From Mustelus asterias (taxonomy: Eukaryota), in the NCBI RefSeq assembly GCF_964213995.1, contig NC_135822.1, forward strand, positions 25,048,001 to 25,112,000: 64,000 bases of DNA, given 5' to 3'. Position 1 is the first letter of the stretch. Every line of letters begins with the position of its first letter. Positions 4,734-60,610 of the stretch are shown here, piece after piece. The notes beneath the pieces were generated by a model. That model did no database searches. It was not told the origin of the DNA and saw only the letters and a program-made list of their open reading frames with translations. The translations under genes and the position numbers were made by a program.

Positions 4734-6912
4734 CATAAGACGTAGGAGCAGAATTAGGCCACTCGGCCCATCGTGTCTGTTCCGCCATTCAATCATGGCT
4801 GATATTTTTCTCATCCCCATTCCCATGCCTTTTCCCCATAACCCCTGATCCCCTTATTAACCAAGAACCTATCTATCTCTGTCTTAAAGACACTCAATGA
4901 CCCGGCCTCCACAGATCCCCCCTCATCCTTCTAAATTCCAACGAGTACAGACCCAGAGTCCTCAACCGTTCCTCATATGACAAGCTCTTCATTCCAGGGA
5001 TCATTCTTGTGAACCTCCTATGGATCCTTTCCAAGGCCAGCAGATCCTTCCTTAGATACAGGGCCCAAAACTGCTCACAATTCTCCAAATGGGGTCTAAC
5101 CAGAGCGCTAATCAGCCTCAGAAGTACATCCCTGCTCTTGTATTCTAGCCCTCTCGACATGAATGCTAACATTGCATTTGTCTTCCTAATTGCCGACTGA
5201 ACCTGCACGTTAATCTTAAGAGAATCTTGAACAAGGACTCCCAAGTCCCTTTGTGCTTCTGATTTCCTAAGCATTTTTCCATTTAGAAAATAGTCTATGC
5301 CTCCATTCCTCCTTCCAAAGTACATAACCTCACATTTTTCCACATTGTATTCCATTTGCCACTTCTTTGCCCACTCTCCTAGCCTGTCCAAGTCCTTCTG
5401 CAGCCCTCCTGCTTCCTCAATGCTACCTGATCCTCTACCTATCTTCGTATCATCTGCAAACTTAGCAACAGTGCCTTCAGTTCCTTCCTCCAAATCGTTA
5501 ATGTATATTGTGAAAAGTTGTGGTCCCAGCACTGACCCCTGAGGCACACCACTAATCACTGGCTGCCATCCTGAAAAAGACCCCTTTATCCCCACTCTCT
5601 GCCTTCTGCCAATCCTCTATCCATGCCAGGATCTTACCCTTAACACCATGGGCTCTTAACTTATTTAACAGTCTCCTATGTGACACCTTGTCAAAGGCCT
5701 TTTGGAAATTAAATAAATCACGTCCACTGGTTCTCCTTTATCTAACTTCCTTGTTACATCCTCAAAAACTCTAACAGATTTGTCAGACATGACCAACCAT
5801 TGACGAAACGGTGCTGACTCAGTCCTATTTTATCATGCACTTCCAAGTACTCTGCGATCTCATTTTTAACAATGGACTCTAAAATCTTGCCAATGACCGA
5901 AATCAGGCTAACCGGCCTATAATTTCCCATCTGCTGCCTCCCTCCCTTCTTAAACAGTGGTGTTATATTAGCTACTTTCCAGTCCTCTGGGACTCTCCCT
6001 GCCTGCAGTGATTCCTGAAAGATCACCACCAATGCCTCTACAATTTCCTCAGCTATCTCTTTCAGAACCCTGGGGTGTAGTTCATCTAGTCCAAGCGATT
6101 TATCCACCTTCAAACCTTTCAGTTTCCCCAGAACCTTCTCCTTAGTGATGGCCACTACATTCATCTGTTTCCCCTGATTCTCCTGGAGCTCTGGCATCCC
6201 ACTGGTGTCTTCCACCGTGAAGACTGATGCAAAGTAACTATTCAGTTCATCTGCTATTTCTTTGTTTCCTATTACTTCTCCAGCCTCATTTTCCAGTGCT
6301 CCAATGTCTATTTTTGCCTCTCTTACCTTTTATATATTGGAAAAAACTCTTCCCGTCTTCTTTTATATTACTAGCTAGTTTACACTCATATTTCATCTTC
6401 TCCCCCCTTTATTGCTTTTTTAGTTGTCCTCTGTTCACTTTTAAAGGCTTCCCACTAATCCTCGTCACTTTGTATGCTTTTTCTTTTGCTTTTATGCTGT
6501 CCTTGACTTCCTTCGTCAGCCATGGATGCCTCGTCTTCCCCTTAGCATATTTCTTCCTCCTTGGGATGAATTTCTGTTGTGCCTTCCGAATAACTCCCAA
6601 AACCTCCTGCCATTGCTGTTCCACTGTCTTCCCTGCTAGGGCTCCCTTTCCAATCAACTCTGGCCAGCTCCTCCCTCATGTCTTTGTAGTTACCTTTATT
6701 TAATTGTAATACCATTACATCTGATTCCAGCTTCTCCCTCTCAAACTGCAGGGTAAATTCTTTCATATTATTGTCACTGCTCCCTAAGGGTTCCTTCACC
6801 TTAAGTTCCCTAATCAAGTCTGCCTCATATTACACATCACCAAATCCAGATTTGCCTGTTCCTTGGTCACAAGCTGCTCCAAAAAACCACCTTTTAGACA
6901 TTCCACAAATTC
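4734..6912 (-). mobile_element. CR1 LINE ORF2 fragment (linker + RT), frameshifted, with internal deletions
   Basis: ORFs 4894-5595 (GVPQGSVLGPQLFTIYINDL...KFADDTK), 5754-6215 (PEDWKVANITPLFKKG..NYRPVSL), 6409-6657, 6542-6817; CR1 3' UTR at 4734-4890. Confidence 0.96.
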
Positions 6913-7835: not shown

Positions 7836-8254
7836 GACTCTATTATTTCTCACACAAAGCCAGGGAAAAACAGTCAAATTTATCATCCATCTCATTGATG
7901 TTTGTGGGATCTTGCTGTGTGCGAAACAGCTGCCACATTTACCCCTGTGAAATAATTCATTGTATGCAAAGTGCTTTGAGTCATTCCTGAGAGAAAATCC
8001 ACACGATGGTTGTGTCCTGCAGTAATTGGAGGGGAAGGAGTGGGGAGTAATGAGATTCAGACTTGATCCCACCTGACAGGAAAATAGAATTGGAGGGAGT
8101 CATCCCAGAAGCATTCTCTGATGGTCTCAGCAACTGGTACGAGGAGTGCACACAAAACCAGGATCTCTTCAGGCTGCTGTACTCTGAAGACACTGGGGGA
8201 AAAACAAATATTTTGAATCAGTCATGAGGAAGGTCTGCCATTTTATTGTTTCAG

Positions 8255-8432
8255 TGAACCTGCCCGGGTTGGAGCCAAAGTTCCCAGATTGCATTCCCAG
8301 CGACAAATTCTGGATTTCCTGCATTTATGCACCCTGACCATCCTATTCTCCATCGTGGGATCCAGAGTGTCCTCTCTGGTGGTGCTGGAATTCTCCCTTC
8401 GAATCATTTCCATGCTGCTTTCCAACAATCAT
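8255..8432 (+). CDS. TMEM82: TMEM82 coding exon 3 (EPARVGAK...IVGSRVSSLVVLEFSLRIISMLLSNNH)
   Basis: ttattgtttcag acceptor, CAT|gtaagt donor, 178 nt; VGSRVxxLVVLEFSLR is characteristic of TMEM82. Confidence 0.95.
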
Positions 8433-9079
8433 GTAAGTTTCTGTGGTCTTTATTACTTTTGTCAGGGTGACACACAGAGTCAGTGTAACATCCAGAAGGA
8501 TCTCTGCCCATCCAGATTTCAGGGTTTGAAGGTCATGTTAGGAAATTGATATTGCCATAAATATAGGAGAGTCCTTTAGTGGAATGGGAGGTCAGAGCAT
8601 GTGATGAATTCTGGATTAGGAGTACACTGATTGTTACTCCGCGTCTTTTGCACGACTCTGTGTGTAGCCTTGGGATTCTGTTCCAGATGTGTTTAGACCA
8701 ATTGTACAGCTGTTGTTGCCCAAGCTGTGTAGTGCAGAGCAGTCATCAGATCTGGGATCTTACTGGTCTGTATGGCTTAGTACACTTATCAACTGAGTCA
8801 TTTGGGCAGTGTCAGATTCAAGACCTGAGAGTTGGTGCAGATTTGAAAGTTGTAGGAGAACAATCCTAAGGGTTGAGTCATGAAAGAGCTGAGGAAGATG
8901 GGCTTTTAAGTCCTTGAAAGGGGGCAGCTGAGAGGAGCCTTCTTAGACATAAATAAGAATCAGTGTGGAAACCGTAAAGCTGTACCACTACAGGCAGCTA
9001 AATGCAAGCAACTAAGCAGGTACAGAAGCACAAGTAGAGAAATGTGCACATAGCGAACAGCAGTTGGTATTGTTGCCCT

Positions 9080-9812: not shown

Positions 9813-10229
<417 letters not shown>

Positions 10230-12928: not shown

Positions 12929-13067
12929 TCAGTGACTTTGTCAACCTGCACTACTACTTCTAATGATTTGTGAATTTGTACCCTGGATTCGTGAACCAGC
13001 TTGGGACATTTTTATGTTAAATGTTTGGATGGTGCCATTGCAACTGATCTCTTTTGTCATGTTTCAG

Positions 13068-13255
13068 AGGAGCAGAAGCAGAATCCAAGTGAGCAGAGTA
13101 TCTATCAGACAGTAGGTGTGAGGATGGGTGGGCTGCTGATTTTGACCCTGACTGTTGGGACGTGGGCGGATGTGCTCCACGTTCTCTTATCGCTGGTTGG
13201 AGAGATGTTGTGTCTGCTTCAAGCAGGAACAATGATAAAGGCCTGTAGACAACAG
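13068..13255 (+). CDS. TMEM82: TMEM82 coding exon 5 (EEQKQNPSEQ...VRMGGLLILTLTVGTWAD...KACRQQ)
   Basis: gtttcag acceptor, CAG|gtaag donor, 188 nt; QTVxVRMGGL motif. Confidence 0.96.
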
Positions 13256-13959
13256 GTAAGCGAGTTCCTTGCCTTCTTCAATATCAGAGGTGACTGGATC
13301 AGACCATACCTTAGCATGAGGTAATACCCCTTCCAGATGCTGATTGCCAGAAACATTGTGTTCAAAGGGCTAATTCAGTGTAAAACATCCAGGAATTCAT
13401 TTGGTCCAACCTCCTCACTTACATAATTCCTTGTCTTGTTTTCTGCATTCTTCCATCACTTGGTTTAATAATTTTTAAAAGTTGATGCATTTCTGTTTGC
13501 ATCTCAATTCGTAATGACATTCACGCATGCTTCCAAAGAAAATAGTAATGTTAACAGTGCAATTACCAGCTGAACACTCACTGCTTGCAGACTCAACTCC
13601 ACATGGAGATGCACCCTCTGCATGTTCACAAATGTCTTCACACAAACTCCATGTCCACATTCGTCTCTACATATGCACACTTCCTTTCATGCTTACACAC
13701 TCGAGAACATTTATTTGTGCTAGCACTCTTTTCTGGTGTTGAATGCTTTTTCCAGGTTTGGATACATATACCTTGGTTTTTTCGAATTTCCTAATCCGTA
13801 AACATTTCACCCTGTGAAAGGATGCCTGGGCAGTAGAGTCCGAGCTCACCCATTAAGTGTGAGTCTAAGTTAATGGTGGGCAGCTGGTTCCTGAGGCACT
13901 GAATGCCAACAGAAGTCTGCACCTTTAGTGGAGGATGGGGGGTGGAGCAAATTTTAATA

Positions 13960-17950: not shown

Positions 17951-18091
17951 ATATGGGCTTTGACAAAGGGTCATCTGGACTCGCAACATCAGCACTTTTC
18001 TCTCCTTACAGATGCTGCCAGACCTGCTGAGATTTTCCAGCATTTTCTCTTTTGGTTTCAGATTCCAGCATCCGCAATAATTTGCTTTTAT
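17951..18091 (+). mobile_element. Short retroelement (Penelope-associated repeat, tentative) with 13-bp TSD
   Basis: ttaaattatccaa repeated at 17938-17950 and 18092-18104; body acagatgctgccagacctgctgag; decayed relatives at ~17570-17630 and ~23880-23950. Confidence 0.7.
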
Positions 18092-18348
18092 TTAAATTAT
18101 CCAATATCTCAATAGTCCTATAAGGGTCAAGCACAGAATTTAATCAATTAATGAATCACATTTATGTATTTGGTGTGAGCCATCAAGTGTCCATGTTGTC
18201 TGGGAGTACATGTGCATTGTGCTAGGATAGCTCACGCCAGACAGGAATAGTTGGATTGGTAATAGATGGCCACTGAGGTTGATCTGCTGTGCTGTGCAGA
18301 GAATACAGAACAATAGTGAATGTCTCAGAAGGGCTGCAGCCAATTCCA

Positions 18349-18480
18349 TCAGTATAGCCTTCTCCTGTAAATGTAGTAAGTCAGTGACATGGCACCCAGC
18401 AGGAGTAACACTCCACAACATCCTCGGATTATGGTATGTTCAGGTTCTTCTTTCCTAGCATAACGCTCTATAAAGCCAGA
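18349..18480 (-). CDS. bcl2l16: Bcl-2-family protein (Bcl-wav/bcl2l16-like), coding exon 2: end of BH2 + TM anchor (SGFIERYARKEEPEHTIIRGCCGVLLLLGAMSLTYYIYRRRLY*)
   Basis: Minus-strand acceptor ttctttctttctcag at 18481-18482, phase 0; completes GGW|SGFIERY; hydrophobic helix followed by RRR tail; TGA 18349-18351. Confidence 0.9.
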   Translation of the reverse strand, partial: SGFIERYARKEEPEHTIIRGCCGVLLLLGAMSLTYYIYRRRLY

Positions 18481-19204
18481 CTGAGAAAGAAAGAAGGTAG
18501 CACAGTTTGAAATGAGGAGAAATACTTGCTTTATATATTGCCTTATCACATGTTGCAAAAAACATTCAGTGCGCTCCAAGGTGTCACAAACAGCAATGAG
18601 ATGAATGACCAGTCTATCAGTGCTTCATGTTAGTTCAAGGAAGAATGCTAACCAGGAGAACTCTCATGTTCTTTTTCATACAATGTCATAAGATTTTTAA
18701 TGTCTGCCTGGGACCTTTAGCACTAAAAGTTGATCCTGCCTTTGTTTTGGTTGTGTTTAAAATCCAATAGCCTATCTCATATTGAGTCCACTTCACTCAA
18801 CCCAGAGAGGATTGGGTTGCGATGATTGTGAGGAGGGGGTTTGCATTTGTGTTTGACTCTTCAGTTCTTTGAGCTCCTGGCACAGCCTTCATATCATCCA
18901 ATCAATGTAGCATATACCCCTTGTGTGAATATATAAATTGTATATGAACTTTACCCTCCCATTTCACAAGAAGGGAGAATGTGGCTCTTTGCAGTTAGCA
19001 GAGTTGAGCCACTCAGTGGTGCCGGAAAGAGGGAATTAATTCCCCAGTGAACAGATCACACTTGTAAATGTCTAACTCCACAGAGACTAAGAGACCAGCT
19101 ATTGTCTTTGTAATATTGAATCATAGAATGGTTACGATACAGAAGAAGGCCACTTATTTTGCCCACTCACCTAACTTGTCTATATCCCTCTGTATATTCT
19201 TTGG

Positions 19205-19745
19205 GGATGGCAGCGTGTGCTCAAAATCCAGAGAGCGCGTTTCACGTCGGCGAGTGTCCGAGTTCCGATCTTACTGGCCCCTCGTCAGTGGAGAAGCATG
19301 AAACATGCCGCGGAATGGCAGAATGCTAATTTTAATATATTAGCATGTCATTAGCGAGCACTCCCTCCAGGACCTCACCCCTTACCAGATATTCAGCGGG
19401 CACCAGCATGATGGCACGATGGCGCCACTTACAACAGGTTCACCTAGTCGTAAGGTCCCACCCCCCCCCCCCCGGGGGGGTGTAAAGGTAAGTAAAGCCT
19501 CCAGAGGAGAGGGACATGATCGGGAAGTTGCCTAGAAAGGCCCCCTAGCACTGCTCTCTGGCTCAGCCCCTTAGTGCAAGTTGGCACTGCCAGGTTGGCA
19601 CCATGCTCATGTCAACATAATAGTGCCAAGGGGCAGGCCCCAGTGGGAGCCTTATGGGGGGCTGGAAGGATTCATTTAGATGTGGTGGCTGGGTGTAGAC
19701 TGCGGAGCTGCAAACTCCCTGGGGGAGGTGGGGGGGAGATCCGTC
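19205..19745. repeat. GC-rich non-autonomous transposon-like repeat (decayed)
   Basis: CpG-rich patch in AT-rich intron with C-run/G-run hairpin 19459-19482; shares motifs (ggcactgcca, gaaacatgccgc) with 16200-16385 and 43173-44014. Confidence 0.5.
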
Positions 19746-19873
19746 CAATTAATCAGATTATGATTATTTTGTGAATCTTTTATCTGTTTTGTGATCATTT
19801 TTATTTTTAAGCATGTTTGCCATCTGCCCACAAATGTGTCTATGTTAATCTATTTTTGACAACGTATAATTGA

Positions 19874-20186
19874 TCATAGAATCCCTGCAGTGCAGAAAGA
19901 GGCCATTCAGCCCATCAAGCCTGCACCAGCAACAATCCCACCCAGGCTCTATCCCCCTAAAGCCATGTATTTACCCTGCTAATCCCGCTGGCAATAAGGG
20001 GCAATTTAGCATAGCCAATCAACCTAACCTGCACATCTTTGGACTGTGGGAGGAAACCGGAGCACCCGGAGGAAACACATGCAGACACGTGGAGAACATG
20101 CAAACTCCACACAGGCAGTCACCCGAACCAAAATTGAATACGGGCCCTTGGCGCTGTGAGGCAGCAGTGCTAGCCACTGTGCCATC
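19874..20186 (-). mobile_element. HE1-like SINE
   Basis: Full head-to-tail copy on - strand. Confidence 0.88.
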
Positions 20187-20446
20187 CAATTCGGCAGAAA
20201 CTTTTGGCATAACATAATTGGTGAACAACAAAAGCATAAAATAACCAATTAGAAAGGGGAAAAATGCAAAGACTAAAATACTTTACCAATGAAAAATAAG
20301 GAAATTGACCCATGACCTCATGGTCATGATAGACACAAGAACTATTGTGAAGGTCACAGCAGTGATCTGGTTCCATGACTGAAAAACTGAGAACTAGTGA
20401 TCAAATCTTTTGAAAATAGTGATTTTGCCTGCTTTGCTGCTGATAA

Positions 20447-20761
20447 ATCATAGATCATAGAATCCTACAATGCAGGAGGAGGCCATTCGGCCCATCGAGT
20501 CAACACAATCCCACCCAGGCCCTATCCCCATAACCCCATGCATTTACCCTAGCTCGTCCCCCTGACAGTAAGGGGCAATTCAGCATAGCCAATCCACATA
20601 ACCCACACATCTTTGACTGTGGGAGGAAACCGGAGCACCCGAAGGAAACCCATGCAGACATGGGAAGAATGTGCAAACTCCACTCAGACAGTGACCCAAG
20701 GCAGGAATTGAACCTGAGTCCCTGGCGTTGGGAGGCAGCAGTGCTAGCCACCGTGCCACCC
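20447..20761 (-). mobile_element. HE1-like SINE
   Basis: Full copy on - strand, CR1-type tail. Confidence 0.88.
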
Positions 20762-20982
20762 CTAGGGGTCATGCGAAGTGTGGGATGTCACATTTTTTAG
20801 GAGTCAGACAGGATCAAGGTGGAAAGTCCCGTCTGGAGACTAACCAAACCACTAACACTCTGATTGGTGCAGCTTCTCACAATACCACTGTTGCTAGGCA
20901 GTAAGTTACATGCCAGTTAGTGCATTTAAACTATTTTGGTTGCATTGCCTCAGGGTCACTATGTAAAACCTGTCATACTCAC

Positions 20983-21423
20983 CCATCCTCCACTTTCTCT
21001 AATCTTTGGACACACATTTCTCTCCACGTACTGTCCCACTCTGAATTCCAGCTCCTCTAGCACGGACGCCATGCCATTTTTCTGACAGTATATGGCCAGC
21101 TGCCCAGCCAAGACATAAATAGAAAGGATCCCACTCCAGGTCAGTTCCTTCTTCTGCCAGGGTTTCTCTGGTTGGAAATGCTCATCCAGCATCGTGAATA
21201 AATAGTCGCAGGCATTGTCAGCGCAAACCTCCCTGAAAATCCGGGGCCATCGCTTGAAGAAGATGGGATATTTCTCCAGGAGGTCATTTCCTGCATGTCT
21301 CAGGGCTGCTGTAGCCACGCTGGGAGCAGGTTTTGATGTCCTACCAGTCACGTACCTGATGTAATCCTGTGACATTATATAGGCCTCCTTCACCATATGA
21401 TCATTGCTTTGTTCAGTTGTCAT
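20983..21423 (-). CDS. bcl2l16: Bcl-2-family protein (Bcl-wav/bcl2l16-like), coding exon 1: BH4, BH3, BH1, start of BH2
   Basis: 147 codons: BH4-like EAYIMSQDYIRYVT, BH3 ALRHAGNDLLEKY, BH1 ELTWSGILSIYVLAGQL, BH2 IRESGGW|gtgagt. The phase-0 intron after GGW is the position used by Bcl-2/Bcl-xL/Mcl-1-type genes. In-frame upstream TAA (21478-21480) fixes the start. Family call is strong; the specific ortholog is from memory. Confidence 0.92.
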
Positions 21424-22184
21424 TTGAAATGGCCACGATCTGTGAAATGTGTTTGGTTGCTGAGCTGCTCTGTGCTGTTATGATGGAATTGGACTCTCAA
21501 GTATCAGGAGACGGTTTGCAGCATCTAAAAATAACAGGGACGGCATCAGGGTGACCAGGCCAGGGAAATATCCTGGCAAAATGTCAGGGCTAATATTCAG
21601 AAATACAGTGTGCAAAGTGTAATTAGTGATTTTTTTAAAAATCAAGCTACTGATTGCATTCCTCGTGTTACTGTTAATCATGAGACTTCTGGGTAAATTT
21701 GAAGAAATGTGCCTCGCAGTGAACTAAGTAAAAGTAAAGCTCCAGAACAGCAAAAAAGAAAGTCTGGGATCTTCATTTACCTCAAATAGCTGAACATATC
21801 CAACCCACACACCCAAATGCTCACCCCTGTCACCCATGCTGGCATGTGCTTGAGTGTGCTTAGCAAGGGTAAGATTGGACTTTGCTGTAGTGCCCTTGCT
21901 GACACTCCAGGTGTAGGCCTTCGTGAAAAGAAGAGTCACCTGGTTGAGGTACTGGGAGGTGCACATACTCCGTGAAGTCGACCTCAGCCTGAGTCAGCAA
22001 CTTTAGGCTGGAATGTATAAAGATAATGAAATGCCTTATGAAGTGAATGGTTTTCATTCTGCTGGGGACATGGGAGTGTCAGTTTTGGAATCCAGCTAGA
22101 CAGGATTAGATTGTCTGATCAATATCAAGTTTCATGTATCAAGTATCAGCTTGGTCCCACAAAGTACATTTCGAGTTATAGAAG

Positions 22185-29629: not shown

Positions 29630-29864
29630 ATGATGTCTCAGGCAAAGAAGGTCTCTTCAGTTTACATTCAACTTGCTATTCCTGGGAAAGTCAACACTCC
29701 AAAGATATACAACTCTGTTGAACCCTCAAGGGCAGACAATCGTGTACATCAGAAACCAGTGCCATCAACACTCAAGCCTGGGAACTATCCAAATGGATAT
29801 GGAAACAAGGGGGTAAAAGGAATGGTAGGGACTATTCCATCAACCTTTATTTCTGCTGATGAAG
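29630..29864 (+). CDS. FBLIM1: FBLIM1 (migfilin) first coding exon with filamin-binding motif
   Basis: MMSQAKKVSSVYIQLAIP resembles recalled migfilin KRVASSVFITLAP; acceptor cttcag 29616, donor G|gtaaga 29865. Confidence 0.88.
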
Positions 29865-29954
29865 GTAAGAAGGAAACTTTGTCCGGTTCAGTTACGAGCT
29901 TCTCAACAGTGACAGACTTAAATGCTATAAATTACCGTGGGCTCTCTGGACTTA

Positions 29955-30290
29955 GAAATCATAGAAACCATACAGTGCAGAATGAGGCCATTCGGCCCAT
30001 CGAGTCTGCACCGACAACATTCCCACCTATCCCCGTAATCTCACACGTTTACCCCGCTAATCCCTCTAACCCCTCTAACCTATGCATCCCAGGACACTAA
30101 GGGGCAATTTAGCACGGCCAATGCACCTAACCCACACATCTTTGGACTGTGGGAGGAAACTGGAGCACCCGGAGGAAACCCACGCAGACACGGGGAGAAC
30201 GTGCAAACTCCACACAGACAGTGACCCAAGCCGGGAATCGAATCCAGGTCCCTGGAGCTCTGAGGCAGCAGTGCTAGCCACTGTGCCGCT
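29955..30290 (-). mobile_element. HE1-like SINE
   Basis: Full copy on - strand. Confidence 0.9.
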
Positions 30291-31122
30291 CCTGACATGT
30301 AGCTGGAAATAATGATGCCATTGCAACTATGTATATTGGGATTGTTTGAGATGCAATATGGTAGAGAAGCAGGCAAAAATAAGCAAACCATGGACAGGAC
30401 ACTTCAGGGTTTGATTGTAAGGCTACCAAACAACATGAGGGGAAATGCATTACTTGTTATGTTGCTGAACCACAGAGACAACAAAAGTCCCAGTGCAGTT
30501 CCTTTGCAATGCTGAATTAGCCAATCTCTCAAAGTGGTGCTTGGAGGATTGGTACATAACACTCAGCAGCTCTATACTCGGCAGAGGAAAAGTTGACCAG
30601 GATTTATGGTCCTTCCTGATCATTATTCAGTTCTTGCTGTAAATTGCTTGTATGTAAGACATTAGCTGGAGTGGGCTTGTCGGTGATAGCTTCATGGTCA
30701 TGCATCCTGCCAAAGCTGCCTCAAATTAGTCCTATGGTGAAGAATCAAAAGGTAAGCTGGCATCCAAATAGGTAACCTACTCAGTTTCCAAAGAGGAGGG
30801 GAGAAAATGGAAAAAGAGCTAATCCAGTTTTTCCAAACAGTTAAAATCATGTTCGCTGAGTAAGGTCAAATACCAAACTTGATATCTCAGAAATTAACTA
30901 AAAGGAATTGTTGGTATTTTAAGTTTCTTTCATTTCTACAAACAAACACACATTCTTTGTCAAATCGAACCACTATTGTGAAATCTATCACCTGGCCCGG
31001 TATGGAAGCTCTGCATATAAGAGAGGGAGAGAAGAGTCAGCGTGTCACAGCAGCTTGGCATGGGTGTGTCCTGTGTCCTACTTTGCCCTTTACAGCCCTT
31101 ATTGTGATTTTATTTTTTTCAG

Positions 31123-31301
31123 ATTTGCCCCCACCACCTCCCCCTGCTTCAGAGAACACAAGAGATGCTTTTTACTCCAATGAGTTACCACTTCCTCCAC
31201 CTCCACCTCTGCAAACCTGTGAGAGACCAGTCCCATCCTTAGCTCATTCCAACCAAAGCAGGCTACAGAAACCATATGTTGGAACAGGTCCAAAACAGCA
31301 G
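31123..31301 (+). CDS. FBLIM1: FBLIM1 exon, proline-rich (DLPPPPPP, ELPLPPPPP; EVH1/VASP-type)
   Basis: tttttttcag acceptor, CAG|gtaggt donor, 179 nt, phase 1->0. Confidence 0.88.
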
Positions 31302-31534
31302 GTAGGTGAAGCAAACACACTTCAGTATTCCTCTTCATCCTCCCATCTTGAAATTCCTGAATCTCAATAGGACATAGATCCTTGGAGACCTCCAAGCCTT
31401 TGATATGTGAACCCAGACGGTGAGCACAGAATGCTCTCCAGTGGCTTCACAGTCATGCACAATCCTGATTTCCAATCTTCGGGTGATGAGAGAAAAACTT
31501 GAAAGAAAACAGATTCAAATAAGTAATGTTTATA

Positions 31535-31835
31535 AAGTAAAGTTTATTTATTAGTCACAAGTTGGCTTAACATTAACACTGCAATGAAGTCACTGTGAAA
31601 ATCCCCTAGTCACCACACTCCGGCACCTGTTCGGGTACACTGAGGGAGAATTTAGCATGATCAATGCACCTGACCAGCACGTCTTTCGGACTGTGGGAGG
31701 AAACCGGAGCACCCGGAGGAAACCCACACAGACACGAGGAGAACGTGCAGACTCCGCACAGACAATGACCCAAGCCGGGAATCGAACCTGGGTTCCTGGC
31801 GCTGTGAGGCAGCAGTGCTTGCCACCATGCCACCC
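31535..31835 (-). mobile_element. HE1-like SINE (alternative-tail subfamily)
   Basis: HE1 head plus aataaacttt-type tail. Confidence 0.88.
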
Positions 31836-31885
31836 TTAGGTGATTTAACTCGCACTGTTTTTGATTAATTCCTTCTTTCTACCAG

Positions 31886-32000
31886 GAATTCTCTGCATCC
31901 TCCAAATCTGACAGGCATCCATTTGTGGGATTCAAACAGGACAATTCCTTGACTCAAAGGGTGAAGGACAAGCAGAATCAATTACCAGATTCAGGGTCAG
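31886..32000 (+). CDS. FBLIM1: FBLIM1 linker exon (EFSASSKSDRHPF...LPDSGS)
   Basis: ttctttctaccag acceptor, CAG|gtaggt donor, 115 nt open; needed to bridge phase 0 to phase 1. Not in the ORF track. Confidence 0.8.
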
Positions 32001-33287
32001 GTAGGTGGCCTACCTGACATAGACGTTTAATGCATTCACCTTCAGGTTCTAAGGTATTACTGGGATTGCAGCACGGTGAGTTCAGAATGCAGCCAGTCCA
32101 CAAATTTATATCTTGCTTCTGTTATCTTATTCGTCACCTACTGTCATGCATTTTGTTTCAATAGTTAGAAAACCTTTAAGCCAACACCTCAGAATTAATT
32201 ACCAATTTGGTGGCTGGACTGGGTAAAACTTGTAACAAATATCCTCCGAAAGAATCTCATAACATTGCTGCAGTGAATTTGTAAATTATACTTTGAATGG
32301 GGATACTGTATGTAGAAACATAGAAAATAGAAGCAGGAGTAGGCCATTTGGCCCTTCAAGCCTGCTCCACCATTCATTTGGATCATAGCTGATCATCAAA
32401 TTCAATATCCTGATCCCTTTAGCCCCAAGAACTATATCTAATTTATTCTTGAAATCACACAATGATATAGAGCATTAGACAAATGTGACCAATAAATTAG
32501 TCACTGGCCAGATATGACCAACTGAGACTTGAGATATGGCTAATAGACTCAGTCATTGGGTGTATGATCTCAATACTTGTATTAATTGAGTGTTTGCATG
32601 TGAATTTTAATCTTGTGTCCACAATTTATGGTGAAAAGTCACTGATCTTTGGTAGCAGGTGCAACAACATTAATATGCAATATTAATATGCAACATTAAT
32701 ATGCCATATTAAAGTATTGAAAAACATATTGGAGGACTTCATAGAGATGCAAGAGAATAAATTATGTCAAGTTAAGATGTTAGGTAGCATAACCAAAAAC
32801 TTGACAAAAGTGATAGATGTTAAGAGGGCTTTAAAAGAGTAGTAGGAAATTGAAAGATAGAGGGAGAAGTGTGAGAGCATGGGGGACCTGGATAACTAAA
32901 GGCAAATGTAAAACCACAGAATGTATGCAACTTGGGATTTTTCAGCTTTGGTTTCTGATACACTGGGTACCTTATTTCAACTGCCTTCTTAGAGAGTGTC
33001 CTACCGAGCCCGTGTAATTCCTGATGAGGCTGGGGTCAGCTAGTGTCTGAGAGTCTTGGCCAGATTGGGACCTGTAAGTTCCTAAGAATCCTGAATTATC
33101 TGGAATGTGATGCTCTATGAATTTTGGTTTGATTAGGATCCGGCTAGTCTGTGGGAATCCAGACCTGCCTTTGATATGCTAGTCCCTGAGTTATGGTCAT
33201 GCTGGGATGCACTGAAACTAAATTTCTGAATCATGATCTTGTTGGGATGTGCTAATCTCTGTGTTCATGGCTTTTTCCCTCTTTCAG

Positions 33288-33457
33288 ATGTCTGTGCATT
33301 TTGCAACCAGCTGGTTCCACCGAGTATGCCCGCTGTTGTGGCCATGAATAACATATTCCACGAGGATTGCTTGAAGTGTAGAAAATGTCAGTGCGGACTG
33401 GTGGGAAAAACTTATTACAATATAAATGACCACCCTCACTGCGACTCCTGCTATCTG
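33288..33457 (+). CDS. FBLIM1: FBLIM1 LIM1 exon (DVCAFC...HEDCLKCRKC...CDSCYL)
   Basis: LIM zinc ligands C-x2-C...H-x2-C-x2-C-x2-C...C-x2-C; ctttcag acceptor, CTG|gtatag donor; 170 nt. Confidence 0.95.
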
Positions 33458-34014
33458 GTATAGCTGCTATTTCTTTCATATGGAATAGCTTATTTTCTTT
33501 CTATAAAGTTCCTGCTTTTCTCCCTTTCTTTCTGGAAGGCGTTGATTCTTGTTGTGATACAGTTTGCAGAATCACAGACTAGTACAGCACAGATTATCTC
33601 ATTTATGATAGTGTTGGAATGTTGTTTGACCATGGCCACATCATTACTATACCTGACTCTGTTCTTACTCAATGGACACTTTAACACACACCAAGATGTG
33701 AATAAGAGAATTACCCTGACCTTCAAGAATGGTTGCCAGTCTCTCAATGTGATACTATAATTGACTGTGCCATTCTTCCATAGTAGAAACCCTCTTGAAG
33801 ATAGACTGGTGGTAGCATATCCCAGATGTTCATCTTATCTTCAACCCTAGGTTCCCCAGCAACCAAATCTTTCCTCCCTCATAACTATGGGGAACAGAAA
33901 TTTTATTTTTTCTCAAAATATCTCCCGTTCAATCAGCTCAGCAAGGTGAAGTATCCAGTTAGTTCCAATATGAACGTGCAGAGGTCAAATTGGGATATGC
34001 ATTATGCAGATATG

Positions 34015-34463
34015 GTGACTATCCTTCCCATTATGAGGGGAGACTGAGTGGACTGGGCTATACTCATTGGAATTCAGAAGAATGAGCGGAGATCTTATAG
34101 AAACATATAAGATTATGAAGGGAATAAATAAGATAGAAGCAGGGAAGTTGTTTCCACTGGCAGGTGAAACTAGAACTAGGGGGCATGGCCTCAAAATAAG
34201 GGGGAGCAGATTTAGACTGAGTTGAGGAGGAACTTCTTCATCCAAAGAGTTGTGAATCTGTGGAATTCCCTGCCCAGTGAAGCAGTTGAGGCTACCTCCA
34301 TTGAATGTTTTTAAGGCAAGGATAGATACATTTTTGAACAGTAAAGGAACTAAAGTTATAGTGAGTGGACCTGAGTCCACGAAAAGATCAGCCATGACAT
34401 TGAATGGCAAGCAGGCTCGAGGGGCTAGATAGCCTATTCCTGCTCCTAGTTCTTATGTTCTTA
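34015..34463 (+). mobile_element. CR1 3' fragment
   Basis: ctgggctatactcattggaattcagaagaatgag...cctgctcctagttcttatgttcttat. Confidence 0.9.
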
Positions 34464-34643
34464 TAAGGTCTTTCTTTCTATGTCTTCCCACCAAGTGTCA
34501 TCCTTCAAGAAAGGGAAAAAAAAGTTTAATAAAAACTCTCAGCAAAGTTGCCTAATCTGTTACAATGTGCACAACATCATGCATCAATATCCTTCTATCT
34601 CGTAGTGTGCTTACTGAGTCCTTTGCGCCTCTTTAAACTGCAG

Positions 34644-34822
34644 GACACCTTGGAGAAATGCAGCAAGTGCAGAAAACCAATACTGGACCAGATTATAAGA
34701 GCCATGGACAAGGCTTTCCATCCTGAGTGTTTCACATGTGTTGTCTGTAACCGGCTCATTGGAAGTGAGCGTTTTGGAGTGAACCAGGACAGTGAGATTC
34801 ACTGTCTCGAAGACTTCCAGAG
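34644..34822 (+). CDS. FBLIM1: FBLIM1 LIM2 exon (DTLEKCSKC...AFHPECFTCVVC...HCLEDFQR)
   Basis: ctgcag acceptor, AG|gtatgg donor, 179 nt; zyxin-family LIM2. Confidence 0.96.
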
Positions 34823-35979
34823 GTATGGTTCCAGCATTCCTGTACAATGTTTCAGCAAGGGCTTTGTGTAGATTCTCAGCTCCCGAGTCAATCACAGGTA
34901 CACTCATGCCTAACTGAGGTACTGCAAAATTAATTAAAATCTCTTGTACACTCCCTGGTTTGGTGAATAAATTTACAATGTGGTATGGTGCTGATCTCAA
35001 TCCCTGCTCTGAGCAGGGTTTGTCAGGAAAGCAATCAGATGCTATAGTTAGTTAGCCTCAGCATCCCCATTAAGAGAAAAATTCAGTGATCCCTGCTTTA
35101 AAGTATATGGCAATGTACATTTAATGATGGCTGAATCAGGCTCTGCTGTGACATATTAATTCTGAAGAACTTTTCCTTCAGTCAGGCCATTACTGCACCT
35201 ACCTGTTTTGTAATGACATCCAGGGTTTCTGCCTTCATCTCTGCCCAAAAGTCCATTCCAGGTGCTGACTGCCCTAGGTATGAAGAATTTACTGGTATCA
35301 GCCTTGCAGTCAAAGGGAAAACGTGATTAAAAGATTGCTCCTTTACTTGCCATTTTCACAAAACCAATGTGGTCTTATTGAAGGCATTCAGGAAAGGTCA
35401 GAGCAGTAAATAATGGCTGTGTTGCCTTTTAATATTCAAGGTGACTCAAAATATTATCAGTTTTCATTGGGAATCTTGCACTAGACTGCAACACTATCTT
35501 CAATCAGCATGTGGCACTGTTGTATTTTGGAACTGCTGCTCAGACCAATCACAAATTGGGTTCTCCATGTTGACTGGCTGCAAATTATTAATAGGATTTT
35601 ATGACCAAAACTTGCCCAATTATTGAACAGTTCTTGCTGTATGTCATTCAAAATAACTGGAATAGATTAGCACCAAGTGGTCCATGTGCTTTTCAAAATC
35701 CAGATAATGTTCAAAAGTAAAGATGACACCATGAATAGATTTCCACCATCCGATAGGAGGAAACAGCTTGGACAAGCGTAATTATTTTTCCGTTTTTAGT
35801 TTTTTTTCATTCTGCGCAGGAGTCACCTAATATGTTGGTGACTGGCTTGGGGACGGCAACAACTTGTACTTCCACATACATGTTGGACCCAGTTCTCACG
35901 TGGATAACTCACATGTGGATTCCCTCAGTCCTTCATGCTTGGACCTAAAATAGGAAAGTTATTAAAAGTTATTTCTCGG

Positions 35980-36318
35980 GGAGGCGATGGCCCAGTGGTA
36001 TTATCGCTGGACTATTAATCCAGAAACTCAGCTAATGTTCTGGGGGTGTAGGTTCGAATCCTGCCGCAGCAGATGGTGGAATTTGAATTCAATAACAAAA
36101 TCTACTGATGACCATGAAACCATTGTTGATTGATGGAAAACCCATCTGGTTCACTAACGTCCTTTAGGGAAGGAAATCTGCCTTCCTTACCTGGTCTGGC
36201 CTACATGTGACTCCAGAGCCACAACAATGTTGTTGACTCTCAACTGCCCTCTGGCAACTAGGGTTGTGCAAAAAATGCTGGCCAACCAGCAACACCCATG
36301 TCCTGGGATTGAATAAAA
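35980..36318 (+). mobile_element. tRNA-derived SINE, second family
   Basis: gatggcccagtggtattatcgctggact...ggttcgaatcc; same family at 49610-49915 and 11870-12130(-). Confidence 0.8.
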
Positions 36319-36760
36319 CAATCTTACTGATGGCTCAGATGATAAATCAACAATCATGTGTGCAGCTGAGCAATGCAGATGACAAGATTCTCGGCGGTGG
36401 AAGTGAGGTGTTACAAATGGACTCAGCTCTCTGGCTAGGAAGGGAAAGAATAACCAGTGGATCCTGATCAGATGGAAAGTTTATATTTGTCGATATTGAG
36501 CGAAGGCAGCATCAGGTTTGTCTCTTGAGCAAAATAATTTGCTGATGCACAATATCTAGGTCTAGATGTTTGTGTCAAGATCCCAAATGGCTTTCTGTGC
36601 ATGTAGAACTGTTTCCCAAGTCAGCACTTTTGGTTGAGCTTGGGAGAAAATTAGTGGGGTGAAATAAACTGCCTTCTTCAAATATTGCTAGTTATTTCCA
36701 GAAACAATCATTGTGATTAAAACCTGTGCACTTTCTGATGTTTGTTTCTTGAATCCACAG

Positions 36761-36881
36761 GCAATATGCTCCACAATGTTCTGTCTGTAAAATGCCAATT
36801 ATACCAGAAGCTGCAAAGGAGGAATGCCTCAACATTGAACTGTTCGGACTCCATTTTCATGTCAACTGCTATAGATGTGAG
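36761..36881 (+). CDS. FBLIM1: FBLIM1 LIM3 N-half exon (QYAPQCSVCKMPIIP...FHVNCYRCE)
   Basis: atccacag acceptor, GAG|gtgaga donor, 121 nt, phase 2->0. Not in the ORF track. Confidence 0.95.
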
Positions 36882-37854
36882 GTGAGAATCTGTATTCAAA
36901 GAAAGAGATTCTGCATTTGAATGCTTATTTTCATTATTTCACAGCACACCTAGAACTGGATATGTTGGTTATGTGGCTGAGTAACTGAGCTGGACAAACC
37001 TTGAAGGCACCAGCTTTGATTTCCTCTCTGTGTTGATAGTTAGTCTCAGCTGAAGCTGTGGTTGGAGGCACTATAACACTTGGAAAGGAAAACATCAGTT
37101 CCCACTCTGGTCACTCTCCAGTGTATTAGGATTAAAGGAAGACCGGATCAGGCCAAGCTGTGATGACCCCAGAAAGTTGAATAGCTTACAACCCTCTCTA
37201 TAGTTTCACAGTCACTGGTACAACCCTGGAGAAAGTGATCTTTATGATGCTGTCTTTTGTCCCTTCAAATTTACTAGCGAAGGACAGCAATAATTCTGAC
37301 TGGGTCAAATTTTCTGGCTGTCTGTATTGTGAGACACACTGGGTGTTTTTTTTAATCCATGTTGTTCATAATCCATATTTATGTGCTGTTAAAGAAGAGG
37401 ATTTAGTACAATTTTATCTCCCCAATGTTGGGGTGGTGCAATCTTTGTGTCAACATCACAGAGTAAAACTGCCTCAACTGCAATATGGAAATAAATGTGA
37501 AGAGGAGGACATAAAAATTAAAAATGTTAGCTTGGCTGTCGCCTTCAAATCAGGAAGTTATGTGTTTGAGCCATATTAGAGCTTAGGCAAGTACAGGATT
37601 CATTTTGTAGGAATTCTCCTGCTCATCCACTACAACTTTGGTACAGGAGCTACAGAAGCCCTGCAAAAATAATGCAAACTGTATTTATGCCATTTGTAGG
37701 CTCTCGTCACAAATTTTCAGCAGACATTCTGGAGAACTCGTGCAGCAAATTCATTCCTGTAATCTAGGCTGATGTCCATGTGGATGCTGTCTTGGTGGAA
37801 ATGGTATTCTTCAGATGAACCATTCCACATGTGTACTGTATTGGTTTTCTTACT

Positions 37855-47518: not shown

Positions 47519-48750
47519 AGCATTTATGGAATGATCTAGTGATTCTACTAAGCTTTAATCTCTATTATTGCCCTTGCCAATGCTTCCCTATTCCAGTTAC
47601 TTTCTGTGAAAGCTATTTCCTTTTATGGGATAATGGCACAAATGTTTTAGATTGTACAACAACAAACTCCTAAGTTTCTTCCCCCACTCACACTTGTTTT
47701 GCATGCCAGTGATGAATTTACACCATCAGCACAGCAACACTCAAAAACACAATTCCTTCTCTATTATTTGCAGACTTCTACAAATGACACAACCTTCAAA
47801 ATGAACCTTTTTGGGGTTTAAATGGTCCCTTTACAGTTTGAGATTATTTTAACTATTAAAGCAGCACTTAAAAATTATTTTCCAGAGAATCAAGGGTAAC
47901 AAGGCTTGCTTTGAAGTTTTCTTTGCAAAGACATTTTACCCAGGTTTCTGGTTAAAATGAAAGAAAACTATGATCTTCCTGTCTACTTTCACTTTTACTC
48001 TGTTCCATGATCTGCAGTCTATTTCATTAGCAGATGCCACTTTTGATGCAAATGTGTTTTAATTTCCCACTGTTAGTATTTTTTTCAGAATAGAACGCCC
48101 ACTCAAAACTGGGAATCAATGGTGTGCACTGTAAACATTTGAATTTCAGCAAAGCTGTGACACAGGTATCAAAACAGAATTCTGTTAACTCAGACCGGTA
48201 ATCAAATCTAGAACTTTCCTATTCTTCCGGAAACCAAGCCTCTCGGAATGTATAATTTTGAAACACTGACATCACAACCAGATTTATGAATGCTCACATT
48301 TTCACTGTTCAAAACTGAAGAAACTTCTGCCTCTCAGCCCACATGATGGAATATTGACACTACATTGAGCCATGGTGTACCGCAGCTGACTTGATAGCGA
48401 TCAGTTGCAAATATCTTGGCTAAATTTACATTCCCCCTAATCAAGCAGTGTTGTGGCCAATTATATGAGCTATATGGAGCAATTTATTTTTGGCATGACA
48501 TTTCCATTAAACCATCAAACTCTTAAATAATCAACTTTTTTCTTTACCGACTTCCCTCTCTCTACCTGCCCTTCATTGAGATTCACTTCTCAAGTTACTT
48601 TAACGCAAAAAGCGGTGGAAATCTAGAAGTCAGAAAGAAAAGCTGATGCACTATGGAAGCATCATATGCTGACTGGTATAAGAAAAAGTAAGACAAGGGA
48701 ATGCACTACACATAATTAGAACATTAAAAAAAAACATTAAAATGTTATAC

Positions 48751-49561
48751 AATGGAATTTAACGCAGACAAGTGTGAGATATTGCACTTTGGAAGGACAA
48801 ACCAAAGAAGAACGTACTCGGTAAATGGTAGGACTCTGAAGAGTGCAGTTGAACAGAGGGATCTGGGAATACAGGTACAGAGTTCCCTAAAAGTGACGTC
48901 ACAGGTGGATAGGGTCGTAAAGAGTGCCTTTGGTACATTGGCCTTTATAAATCGGAATATCGAGTATAAAAGTTGGAGTGTTATGGTAAGGTTATATAAG
49001 GCATTGGTGAGGCCGAATTTGGAGTATTGTGTACAGTTTTGGTCACCTAGTTACAGGGAGGATGTAAATAAGATTGAAAGAGTGCAGAGAAGGTTCACAA
49101 GGATGTTGCCGGGTCTTGAGAAGCTGAGTTACAGAGAGAGATTGAATAGGTTGGGACTTTATTCCCTGGAGCGTAGAAGATTGAGGGGAGATTTGATAGA
49201 GGTGTATAAGATTTTGATGGGTATAGATAGAGTGAATGCAAGCAGGCTTTTTCCGCTGAGGCTAGGGGAGAAAAAAACCAGAGGGCATGGGTTAAGGGTG
49301 AAAGGAGAAAAGTTTAAAGGGAATATTAGGGGGGGCTTCTTCACGCAGAGAGTGGTGGGAGTGTGGAATGAGCTGCCGGATAAAGTGCTAAATGCGGGGT
49401 CACTTTTAACATTTAAGAAAAGCTTGGACGGGTTCATGGATGAGAGGGGTGTGGAGGGATATGGTCCAAGTGCAGGTCAGTGGGACTAGGCATAAAATGG
49501 TTCGGCACAGACAAGAAGGGCCAAAAGGCCTGTTTCTGAGCTGTAATTTTCTATGGTTCTA
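48751..49561 (+). mobile_element. Young 5'-truncated CR1 LINE with uninterrupted RT C-terminal ORF (245 aa)
   Basis: ORF 48752-49489 open to the natural stop (...GYGPSAGQWD*), many CpGs retained, 3' hairpin and ttctatggttcta tail. Confidence 0.96.
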
Positions 49562-60527: not shown

Positions 60528-60610
60528 ATGGTACGAGAAACCAGGCACCTCTGGGTGGGGAATTTGCCGGAAAATGTGCGCGAAGACAAGATTATCGAGC
60601 ATTTTAAACG
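60528..60610 (+). CDS. SPEN: SPEN (SHARP/MINT) coding exon 1 (MVRETRHLWVGNLPENVREDKIIEHFKR); gene continues beyond the window
   Basis: Near-identical to the recalled SPEN N-terminus (RRM RNP2-like LWVGNL); 83 nt, CG|gtaagt donor; downstream of FBLIM1 as in mammals. Too short for the ORF track. Confidence 0.96.

Follow-up and report, generated by a model that had tools for sequence, protein, structure and literature searches.

We analysed a 64,000-nucleotide stretch of the Mustelus asterias genome (contig NC_135822.1, positions 25,048,001 to 25,112,000; hereafter the window) and found on its minus strand a real, intact, single-copy gene of the Bcl-2 family, bcl2l16, already annotated in public databases under its right name and therefore not new. 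Sequence comparisons indicated that this gene is almost certainly the chondrichthyan ortholog of Bcl-wav. By analogy with zebrafish, we consider it probable that the intact shark ortholog is a mitochondrial protein using the VDAC1 and calcium mechanism described there. The gene-discovery value is small, an identical protein being present in RefSeq with the right name; the value of the locus rests on a correction of the taxonomic range, a natural variant of the BH3 motif and an invariant motif in helix 3.

An intact two-exon gene identical to a named RefSeq model

Coding exon 1 (21423-20983, minus strand, 441 nt) starts with an ATG at 21423 and encodes 147 amino acids ending in GGW, spanning helix 1 at the BH4 position, BH3, a helix-3 motif, BH1 and BH2. 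The donor GTGAGT follows directly at 20982. The phase-0 GT-AG intron (20982-18481, minus strand, 2,502 bp) ends with a pyrimidine tract and CAG at 18481, and coding exon 2 (18480-18349, minus strand) adds 43 amino acids and a TGA stop codon, covering the end of BH2, a linker, a conserved di-cysteine, a transmembrane anchor and a basic tail. Splicing at these canonical sites gave an open 190-residue protein, identical over its entire length to RefSeq XP_078095138.1, 'BCL2 like 16 [Mustelus asterias]' (P0280; records XP_078095138.1,.139.1 and.140.1), in which residues 1-147 correspond to exon 1 and residues 148-190 to exon 2. The coordinates, both exons, the phase-0 GGW junction and the translation were exact in the initial annotation. 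The assignment of the junction is based on the splice signals, on the orthologs and on the identical named model, all of which place it at the same GGW. Because RefSeq models are predictions, the identical record supports the junction without proving expression. A search of the M. asterias genome with exon 1 returned one match only.

All 13 matches of the first protein search belonged to the bcl2l16 family, with 50-90% identity. The top seven were named 'BCL2 like 16' and came from basking shark (90%), sevengill (88%), bamboo shark, two rays, Callorhinchus (74%) and coelacanth (63%). Cluster members covered 19 cartilaginous-fish species including Callorhinchus, each with a 'BCL2 like 16' record, so that the novelty claimed by the initial annotation was overstated: the identical protein and its orthologs in 18 further cartilaginous species already carry this name. 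A search of the Atlas returned generic Bcl-2 clusters only. Outside the cartilaginous fishes, orthologs from frogs, sturgeon, gar and lungfish often carry wrong names (BOK-like, bcl-2-like 1/2 or NR13-like) although they are members of the bcl2l16 clade.

Several features of the transcription unit were observed in passing. The reading frame stays open for 18 codons upstream of the ATG (21424-21530, minus strand) and resembles the N-terminal extension of a 215-residue bamboo-shark model, and a candidate acceptor near 21525 (minus strand) suggests an untranslated upstream exon. Candidate polyadenylation signals lie at 18087..18144 on the minus strand (ATTAAA at 18144, AATAAA at 18092). Repeats resembling short interspersed elements are numerous in the window, two of them inside the bcl2l16 intron.

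The shark protein groups with zebrafish Bcl-wav

The BH3 peptide of zebrafish Bcl-wav, residues 42-67 of UniProt D2Y5Q2, is printed in PMC6148235. Compared by eye, this peptide was identical at 25 of 26 positions to residues 42-67 of an unnamed match (P0078), with the same numbering, and at 17 of 26 positions to the window protein. P0078, a zebrafish-type sequence, shared 49% identity with the shark protein over 187 columns.

We built a tree of 59 rows and 144 columns under LG+G4, in which MCL1, BAK and BOK were represented by partial exons, BAX had no row and 32 of the non-family matches had been picked by hand. The 19 bcl2l16-family rows formed one side of a long branch with a support of 100/100; inside this clade, cartilaginous fishes were grouped with 100/98 and ray-finned fishes with 98/97. 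Approximately unbiased (AU) tests rejected a grouping of the window protein with BOK (p 0.0005) or with BCL2L10 (p 7e-6), the two associations that the initial annotation had named as evidence against a Bcl-wav identity. Together, the tree and the AU tests clustered teleost and anuran orthologs with the window protein to the exclusion of other paralogs. When the family was placed as a whole with BOK, BCL2L10, MCL1/L10/A1 or BCL2/Bcl-xL, none of the four placements was rejected (p 0.07-0.30).

These data bear on the reading that the gene is not Bcl-wav but a different paralog, whether BOK-like, BCL2L10/Nrz-like or unnamed, or else a relic that is not expressed. In its favour, many frog, sturgeon and lungfish orthologs are automatically named 'BOK-like', 'bcl-2-like 1/2' or 'NR13-like', and BOK is often the second-best paralog match. 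Against it stand the AU rejections, the separate BOK-like and BCL2L10-like loci described below, the peptide match to zebrafish Bcl-wav, the open frame, the canonical splice sites and the 49% identity kept to the zebrafish-type protein. We regard this reading as scarcely tenable, effectively refuted by the record identity, the tree and the AU tests; it includes the unnamed Bcl-2 paralog that the initial annotation had kept as its alternative. The peptide match, the fully supported clade and the rejected groupings bear out its proposal of a chondrichthyan Bcl-wav.

Bcl-wav goes back at least to the jawed-vertebrate ancestor

Two profile searches were carried out, the second with a frog-weighted profile; the matches listed were 120 of 205 and 120 of 210, respectively. 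Named rows among these came from sharks, rays, chimaera, bichir, sturgeon, gar, bowfin, teleosts, coelacanth, lungfish and frogs, with at least 18 named anuran rows among the matches listed in the second search. Among the matches listed in both searches there was no named amniote, salamander, caecilian, lamprey or hagfish row, a weak absence as unnamed rows were judged partly and by eye, and a search at 50% clustering can hide relatives. Beyond the bcl2l16 family, scores dropped to E 1e-18 or weaker, and the named full-length non-family matches among those looked up were invertebrate Mcl-1-, NR13-, A1- or Bcl-2-like proteins.

The presence of orthologs in holocephalans, sharks, rays, ray-finned fishes, coelacanth, lungfish and frogs indicates that the gene dates to the jawed-vertebrate ancestor at the latest, in agreement with the initial annotation. 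This origin is supported by the sequences and was already implicit in public annotation. The range of Bcl-wav has been given as 'aquatic anamniotes' (PMC3995731), 'bony fishes and anurans' (PMC4632309) and 'teleost fish' (PMC6148235). The latter two ranges, found in reviews, are too narrow for a gene that dates back to the jawed-vertebrate ancestor or beyond. In the literature searched, which comprised main texts, with the original 2013 paper and supplements outside it, we found no mention of Bcl-wav in cartilaginous fishes. Shark or chimaera sequences may already be included in the first description of Bcl-wav (Prudent et al., Nat Commun 2013) or in its supplements. The loss of Bcl-wav may extend beyond amniotes, as the named tetrapod orthologs among the matches listed were all frogs.

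A Bcl-2 fold with altered BH3 and BH1 motifs and an invariant helix-3 signature

Exon 1 matched the Pfam Bcl-2 family PF00452 with E 6.5e-16 and 59.1 bits, above the curated cut-off of 31.4. The structure was modelled for a 90%-identical ortholog, P0003, from a 13-sequence alignment, with a predicted local distance difference test score of 87.6. The model has a Bcl-2-like fold: compared with Bcl-xL, it gave Z 18.6 and a root mean square deviation of 2.2 over 138 aligned residues. Other matches were Nrz (Z 17.9), MCL1 (16.8), BOK (16.4) and BAX (15.2), and identity in the fold alignments to these five proteins was 16-21%. Foldseek agreed, with a TM score of about 0.8 by target. The family membership proposed by the initial annotation therefore held at the level of both Pfam and fold.

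Conservation was scored in 151 orthologs, picked by identity and length out of 304 stored proteins; this set was drawn from word-seeded searches, consists mostly of teleosts and contains related rows. Helix 1, at the BH4 position (residues 9-25; 21349..21399, minus strand), is a helix in the ortholog model and has nearly invariant V11, E13, D20 and Y21, and the Pfam scan of the window protein returned no BH4 family match. The most conserved segment was residues 52-62, with a mean of 0.93 versus 0.80 for helix 1 and 0.78 for BH3. It contains the family signature PIFF[KR]RWPR in helix 3 (residues 53-61; 21241..21267, minus strand), where P53, F55, F56, R58, W59 and P60 were invariant in 151/151 orthologs.

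The BH3 motif (residues 41-48, containing LRHAGND; 21280..21303, minus strand) has Asn46 (codon 21288-21286) in place of the canonical Asp, so that the window protein does not match the BH3-ligand motif LxxxGD with its invariant Asp. Position 46 was Asp in 142 of the orthologs, Asn in 6, Thr in 2 and His in 1, while L41, G45 and L48 were nearly invariant. In a row set selected by motif, Asn46 was the window protein's sole departure from columns at least 90% conserved. Of the 19 cartilaginous species, 5 have another residue in place of the Asp: Mustelus and two Scyliorhinus have Asn, Heterodontus has His and Callorhinchus has Thr. Two teleost rows also depart from Asp. The rows being related, the replacements in cartilaginous fishes amount to about three events.

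In BH1, the core TWSG (21130..21141, minus strand) replaces NWGR, and the groove arginine was found in 0/151 orthologs. NWGR is kept in 8 of the 10 BH1-holding paralog exons of the M. asterias genome. A tail-anchor helix is predicted from hydropathy and the ortholog model at about residues 163-183 (18373..18435, minus strand), followed by a basic RRR tail; the best 19-residue hydropathy, 1.74, starts at residue 163, and the helix spans residues 160-189 in the ortholog model. Of the motifs claimed by the initial annotation, helix 1 at the BH4 position, BH3, BH1, BH2 and the anchor were thus recovered, with the qualifications that BH1 reads TWSG without arginine, BH3 lacks its Asp and BH4 has no Pfam match. 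A di-cysteine lies at the start of the anchor (residues 168-169; 18418-18423, minus strand); C168 is present in 145 of the 147 rows with a residue there and C169 in 125, and the pair is a possible acylation site. Frog orthologs share an insert of roughly six residues before BH1.

Bcl-2 paralogs in the shark genome and the two-exon plan

The M. asterias genome yielded at least 12 Pfam Bcl-2 matches. Inspected by eye, the loci comprised Bcl-xL, BCL2, MCL1, BCL2L10, A1, BOK, two BAK-like and two BAX-like genes in addition to bcl2l16, and all of these paralogs lie elsewhere in the genome. The BAK-like loci are L007 and L011 and the BAX-like loci L010/L013 and L012; the second BAK-like exon reads NWGQ in place of NWGR and sits on a long branch of the tree. 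The BCL2L10-like and A1-like genes (L005, L006) are on one contig (C24), and the Bcl-2 domain of the BCL2L10-like exon carries a long insert rich in alanine.

An intron at GGW was common to the eight paralog exons with a readable donor. BAK-, BAX- and BOK-like exons are among them, so an intron at GGW does not distinguish classes, and its position cannot carry the assignment to a Bcl-2/Bcl-xL/Mcl-1 class made in the initial annotation. The class-typical feature is the two-coding-exon plan, described as a pro-survival pattern (PMC8998228) and also found in the M. asterias Bcl-xL-, BCL2-, BCL2L10- and A1-like genes.

This plan favours a pro-survival protein of the Mcl-1/A1/BCL2L10 kind that would hold BH3 ligands in a non-canonical groove, as do the top fold matches to Bcl-xL, Nrz and MCL1 and the invertebrate Mcl-1-like and NR13-like proteins among the nearest non-family matches. 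We consider such a protein very improbable. The NWGR arginine is absent from every ortholog scored, and the zebrafish ortholog was reported to be pro-apoptotic (PMC3995731); moreover, the fold scores for BOK and BAX are within a few Z units of the top matches, and the sister group of Bcl-wav is not fixed by the tree or the AU tests. Lacking the NWGR arginine, shark Bcl-wav would receive BH3 helices poorly and, its two-exon gene notwithstanding, would not be a pro-survival protein of the classical type.

A calcium role at mitochondria is the favoured function

Zebrafish Bcl-wav is mitochondrial, binds VDAC1 via BH4 and raises mitochondrial calcium uptake, thereby steering actin dynamics and convergence-extension in gastrulation (PMC8038216, PMC4632309). 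Its overexpression kills through Bax, and Nrz blocks this effect (PMC3995731). The affinity of its BH3 for Nrz is low, at 3,570 nM, and the interaction depends on Nrz Arg86, being lost in R86A (PMC6148235). In the shark protein, helix 1, the helix-3 motif and the basic-tailed anchor are kept, which leads us to infer that it acts on calcium through VDAC as in zebrafish, while canonical BH3 exchange would be weak or absent. Basic tails after anchors favour mitochondria. Shark Bcl-wav is likely to sit in the outer mitochondrial membrane via its tail anchor and, as in zebrafish, likely to promote mitochondrial calcium uptake through VDAC1. Asn46 would weaken the BH3 interaction with Nrz/BCL2L10, so that the calcium/VDAC role would be what is conserved at the core.

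Alternatively, the main conserved role of this Bcl-wav ortholog could be apoptotic, with BH3 engaging Bax or neutralising Nrz/BCL2L10, and calcium being secondary or teleost-specific. Zebrafish Bcl-wav does bind Bax and Nrz and kills on overexpression (PMC3995731), and within BH3 the near-invariance of L41, G45 and L48, together with Asp46 in 142 of 151 rows, would suit such a function. The affinity of BH3 for Nrz is nevertheless only micromolar (PMC6148235), the Asp has been replaced by three different residues in the five cartilaginous species, and the developmental phenotype does not depend on cell death, as reviewed (PMC4632309). We therefore regard a primarily apoptotic role as unlikely.

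Some points weigh against the calcium role favoured here. What is known of the function in zebrafish comes from knockdown and overexpression experiments, taken here from later summaries, and no functional, localisation or expression data were found for any cartilaginous fish. The chondrichthyan rows inspected have an Asp at residue 47, which might partly take over from Asp46. The anchor hydropathy of 1.74 is modest and cannot alone tell mitochondria from the endoplasmic reticulum, and the modelled structure is that of the ortholog P0003 and not of the window protein itself.

A broader reading, which we hold only tentatively and as a single package, is that Bcl-wav may have left the BH3-in-groove code, the arginine being lost family-wide and the Asp at least three times in cartilaginous fishes; that selection would instead have fixed a unique helix-3 surface, PIFF[KR]RWPR, which would be a partner site, for instance for VDAC or another membrane calcium-handling protein; and that salamanders, caecilians and amniotes would each have lost the gene on their own, and not in one event tied to the amniote egg. 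The two leads are the invariant helix-3 motif and the lack of a salamander or caecilian ortholog among the matches listed. The natural Asp-to-Asn variant of ground sharks would also allow the killing and calcium activities to be separated.

Gene neighbourhood and the human block

In M. asterias a mitochondrial carrier gene (+) is followed by TMEM82 (+), bcl2l16 (-), a three-LIM gene of the zyxin family (+) and an exon that is likely the first of SPEN (+). Three TMEM82 exons (8217-8546, 9813-10229 and 12995-13321, plus strand; Pfam TMEM82 E 3.1e-15, 6.7e-66 and 1.9e-25) converge on bcl2l16. The first and last TMEM82 exons were not located; a donor follows the 13.0-13.3 kb exon. The divergent neighbour, likely FBLIM1 (29630..36917, plus strand), has three LIM-like exons, two of them with a Pfam LIM match. 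Its best PDB match was TRIP6 (E 5e-21), and its N-terminus resembles, by eye, the filamin-binding peptide of migfilin; a PDB search with this N-terminus found nothing. The orientations given in the initial annotation held for both neighbours, with FBLIM1 as the likely name of the three-LIM gene. The start codons of bcl2l16 and the three-LIM gene are 8.2 kb apart, and no CpG island lies between them, hence no sign of a shared CpG promoter.

An exon at 60528..60610 (plus strand), in the window's only CpG island, is presumably the first coding exon of SPEN, a label based on the human N-terminus; its RRM match was weak (E 0.018) and below the cut-off. Upstream of the window, the mitochondrial carrier gene (L017:3731-4255, L014:4924-5148, L015:2131-2367 and 5044-5280, plus strand; Pfam Mito_carr) is likely SLC25A34, named by its position, and extends the match to the human gene block. 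A 65.7-kb duplication at human 1p36.21 contains FBLIM1, PLEKHM2, SLC25A34, SLC25A34-AS1 and TMEM82, with no Bcl-2 gene in the list excerpted (PMC8468665). This list agrees with the synteny and with the statement of the initial annotation that no Bcl-2 gene is known in the human block, and it does not show a loss at the TMEM82-FBLIM1 site. That amniotes may have lost the gene from the TMEM82-FBLIM1 interval is compatible with the data, though put too firmly in the initial annotation, and SLC25A34-TMEM82-bcl2l16-FBLIM1-SPEN provides a candidate address for seeking relics in tetrapods without the gene.

A Pfam scan of 150 further frames (of 186 selected and 278 found) gave one match, a TMEM82 exon. 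Reverse transcriptase fragments of the long interspersed element type were present at 4894-6329 (minus strand; two frames, Pfam RVT_1) and at 48728-49489 (plus strand; by eye, without a Pfam match).

Comparison with known systems

The closest known entry, XP_078095138.1 BCL2 like 16, is the same protein with the same junction and has no difference at the protein level. Zebrafish Bcl-wav shares with the shark protein its clade, the helix-3 motif, the absent BH1 arginine and the tail anchor; the two differ by an identity of about 49% (via P0078) and by a BH3 Asp in zebrafish versus Asn in the shark, and function was tested only in zebrafish and cell lines. The pro-survival two-exon genes (BCL2L10/Nrz, BCL2A1, BCL2 and BCL2L1) likewise have two coding exons split at GGW, a Bcl-2 fold and a tail anchor, but show around 20% identity in fold alignments, keep NWGR and occupy separate loci. 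BOK, a frequent second-best paralog match, also departs from NWGR (TWGK); unlike shark Bcl-wav, it is encoded by a multi-exon gene at another locus, and its direct grouping with the shark protein was rejected (p 0.0005).

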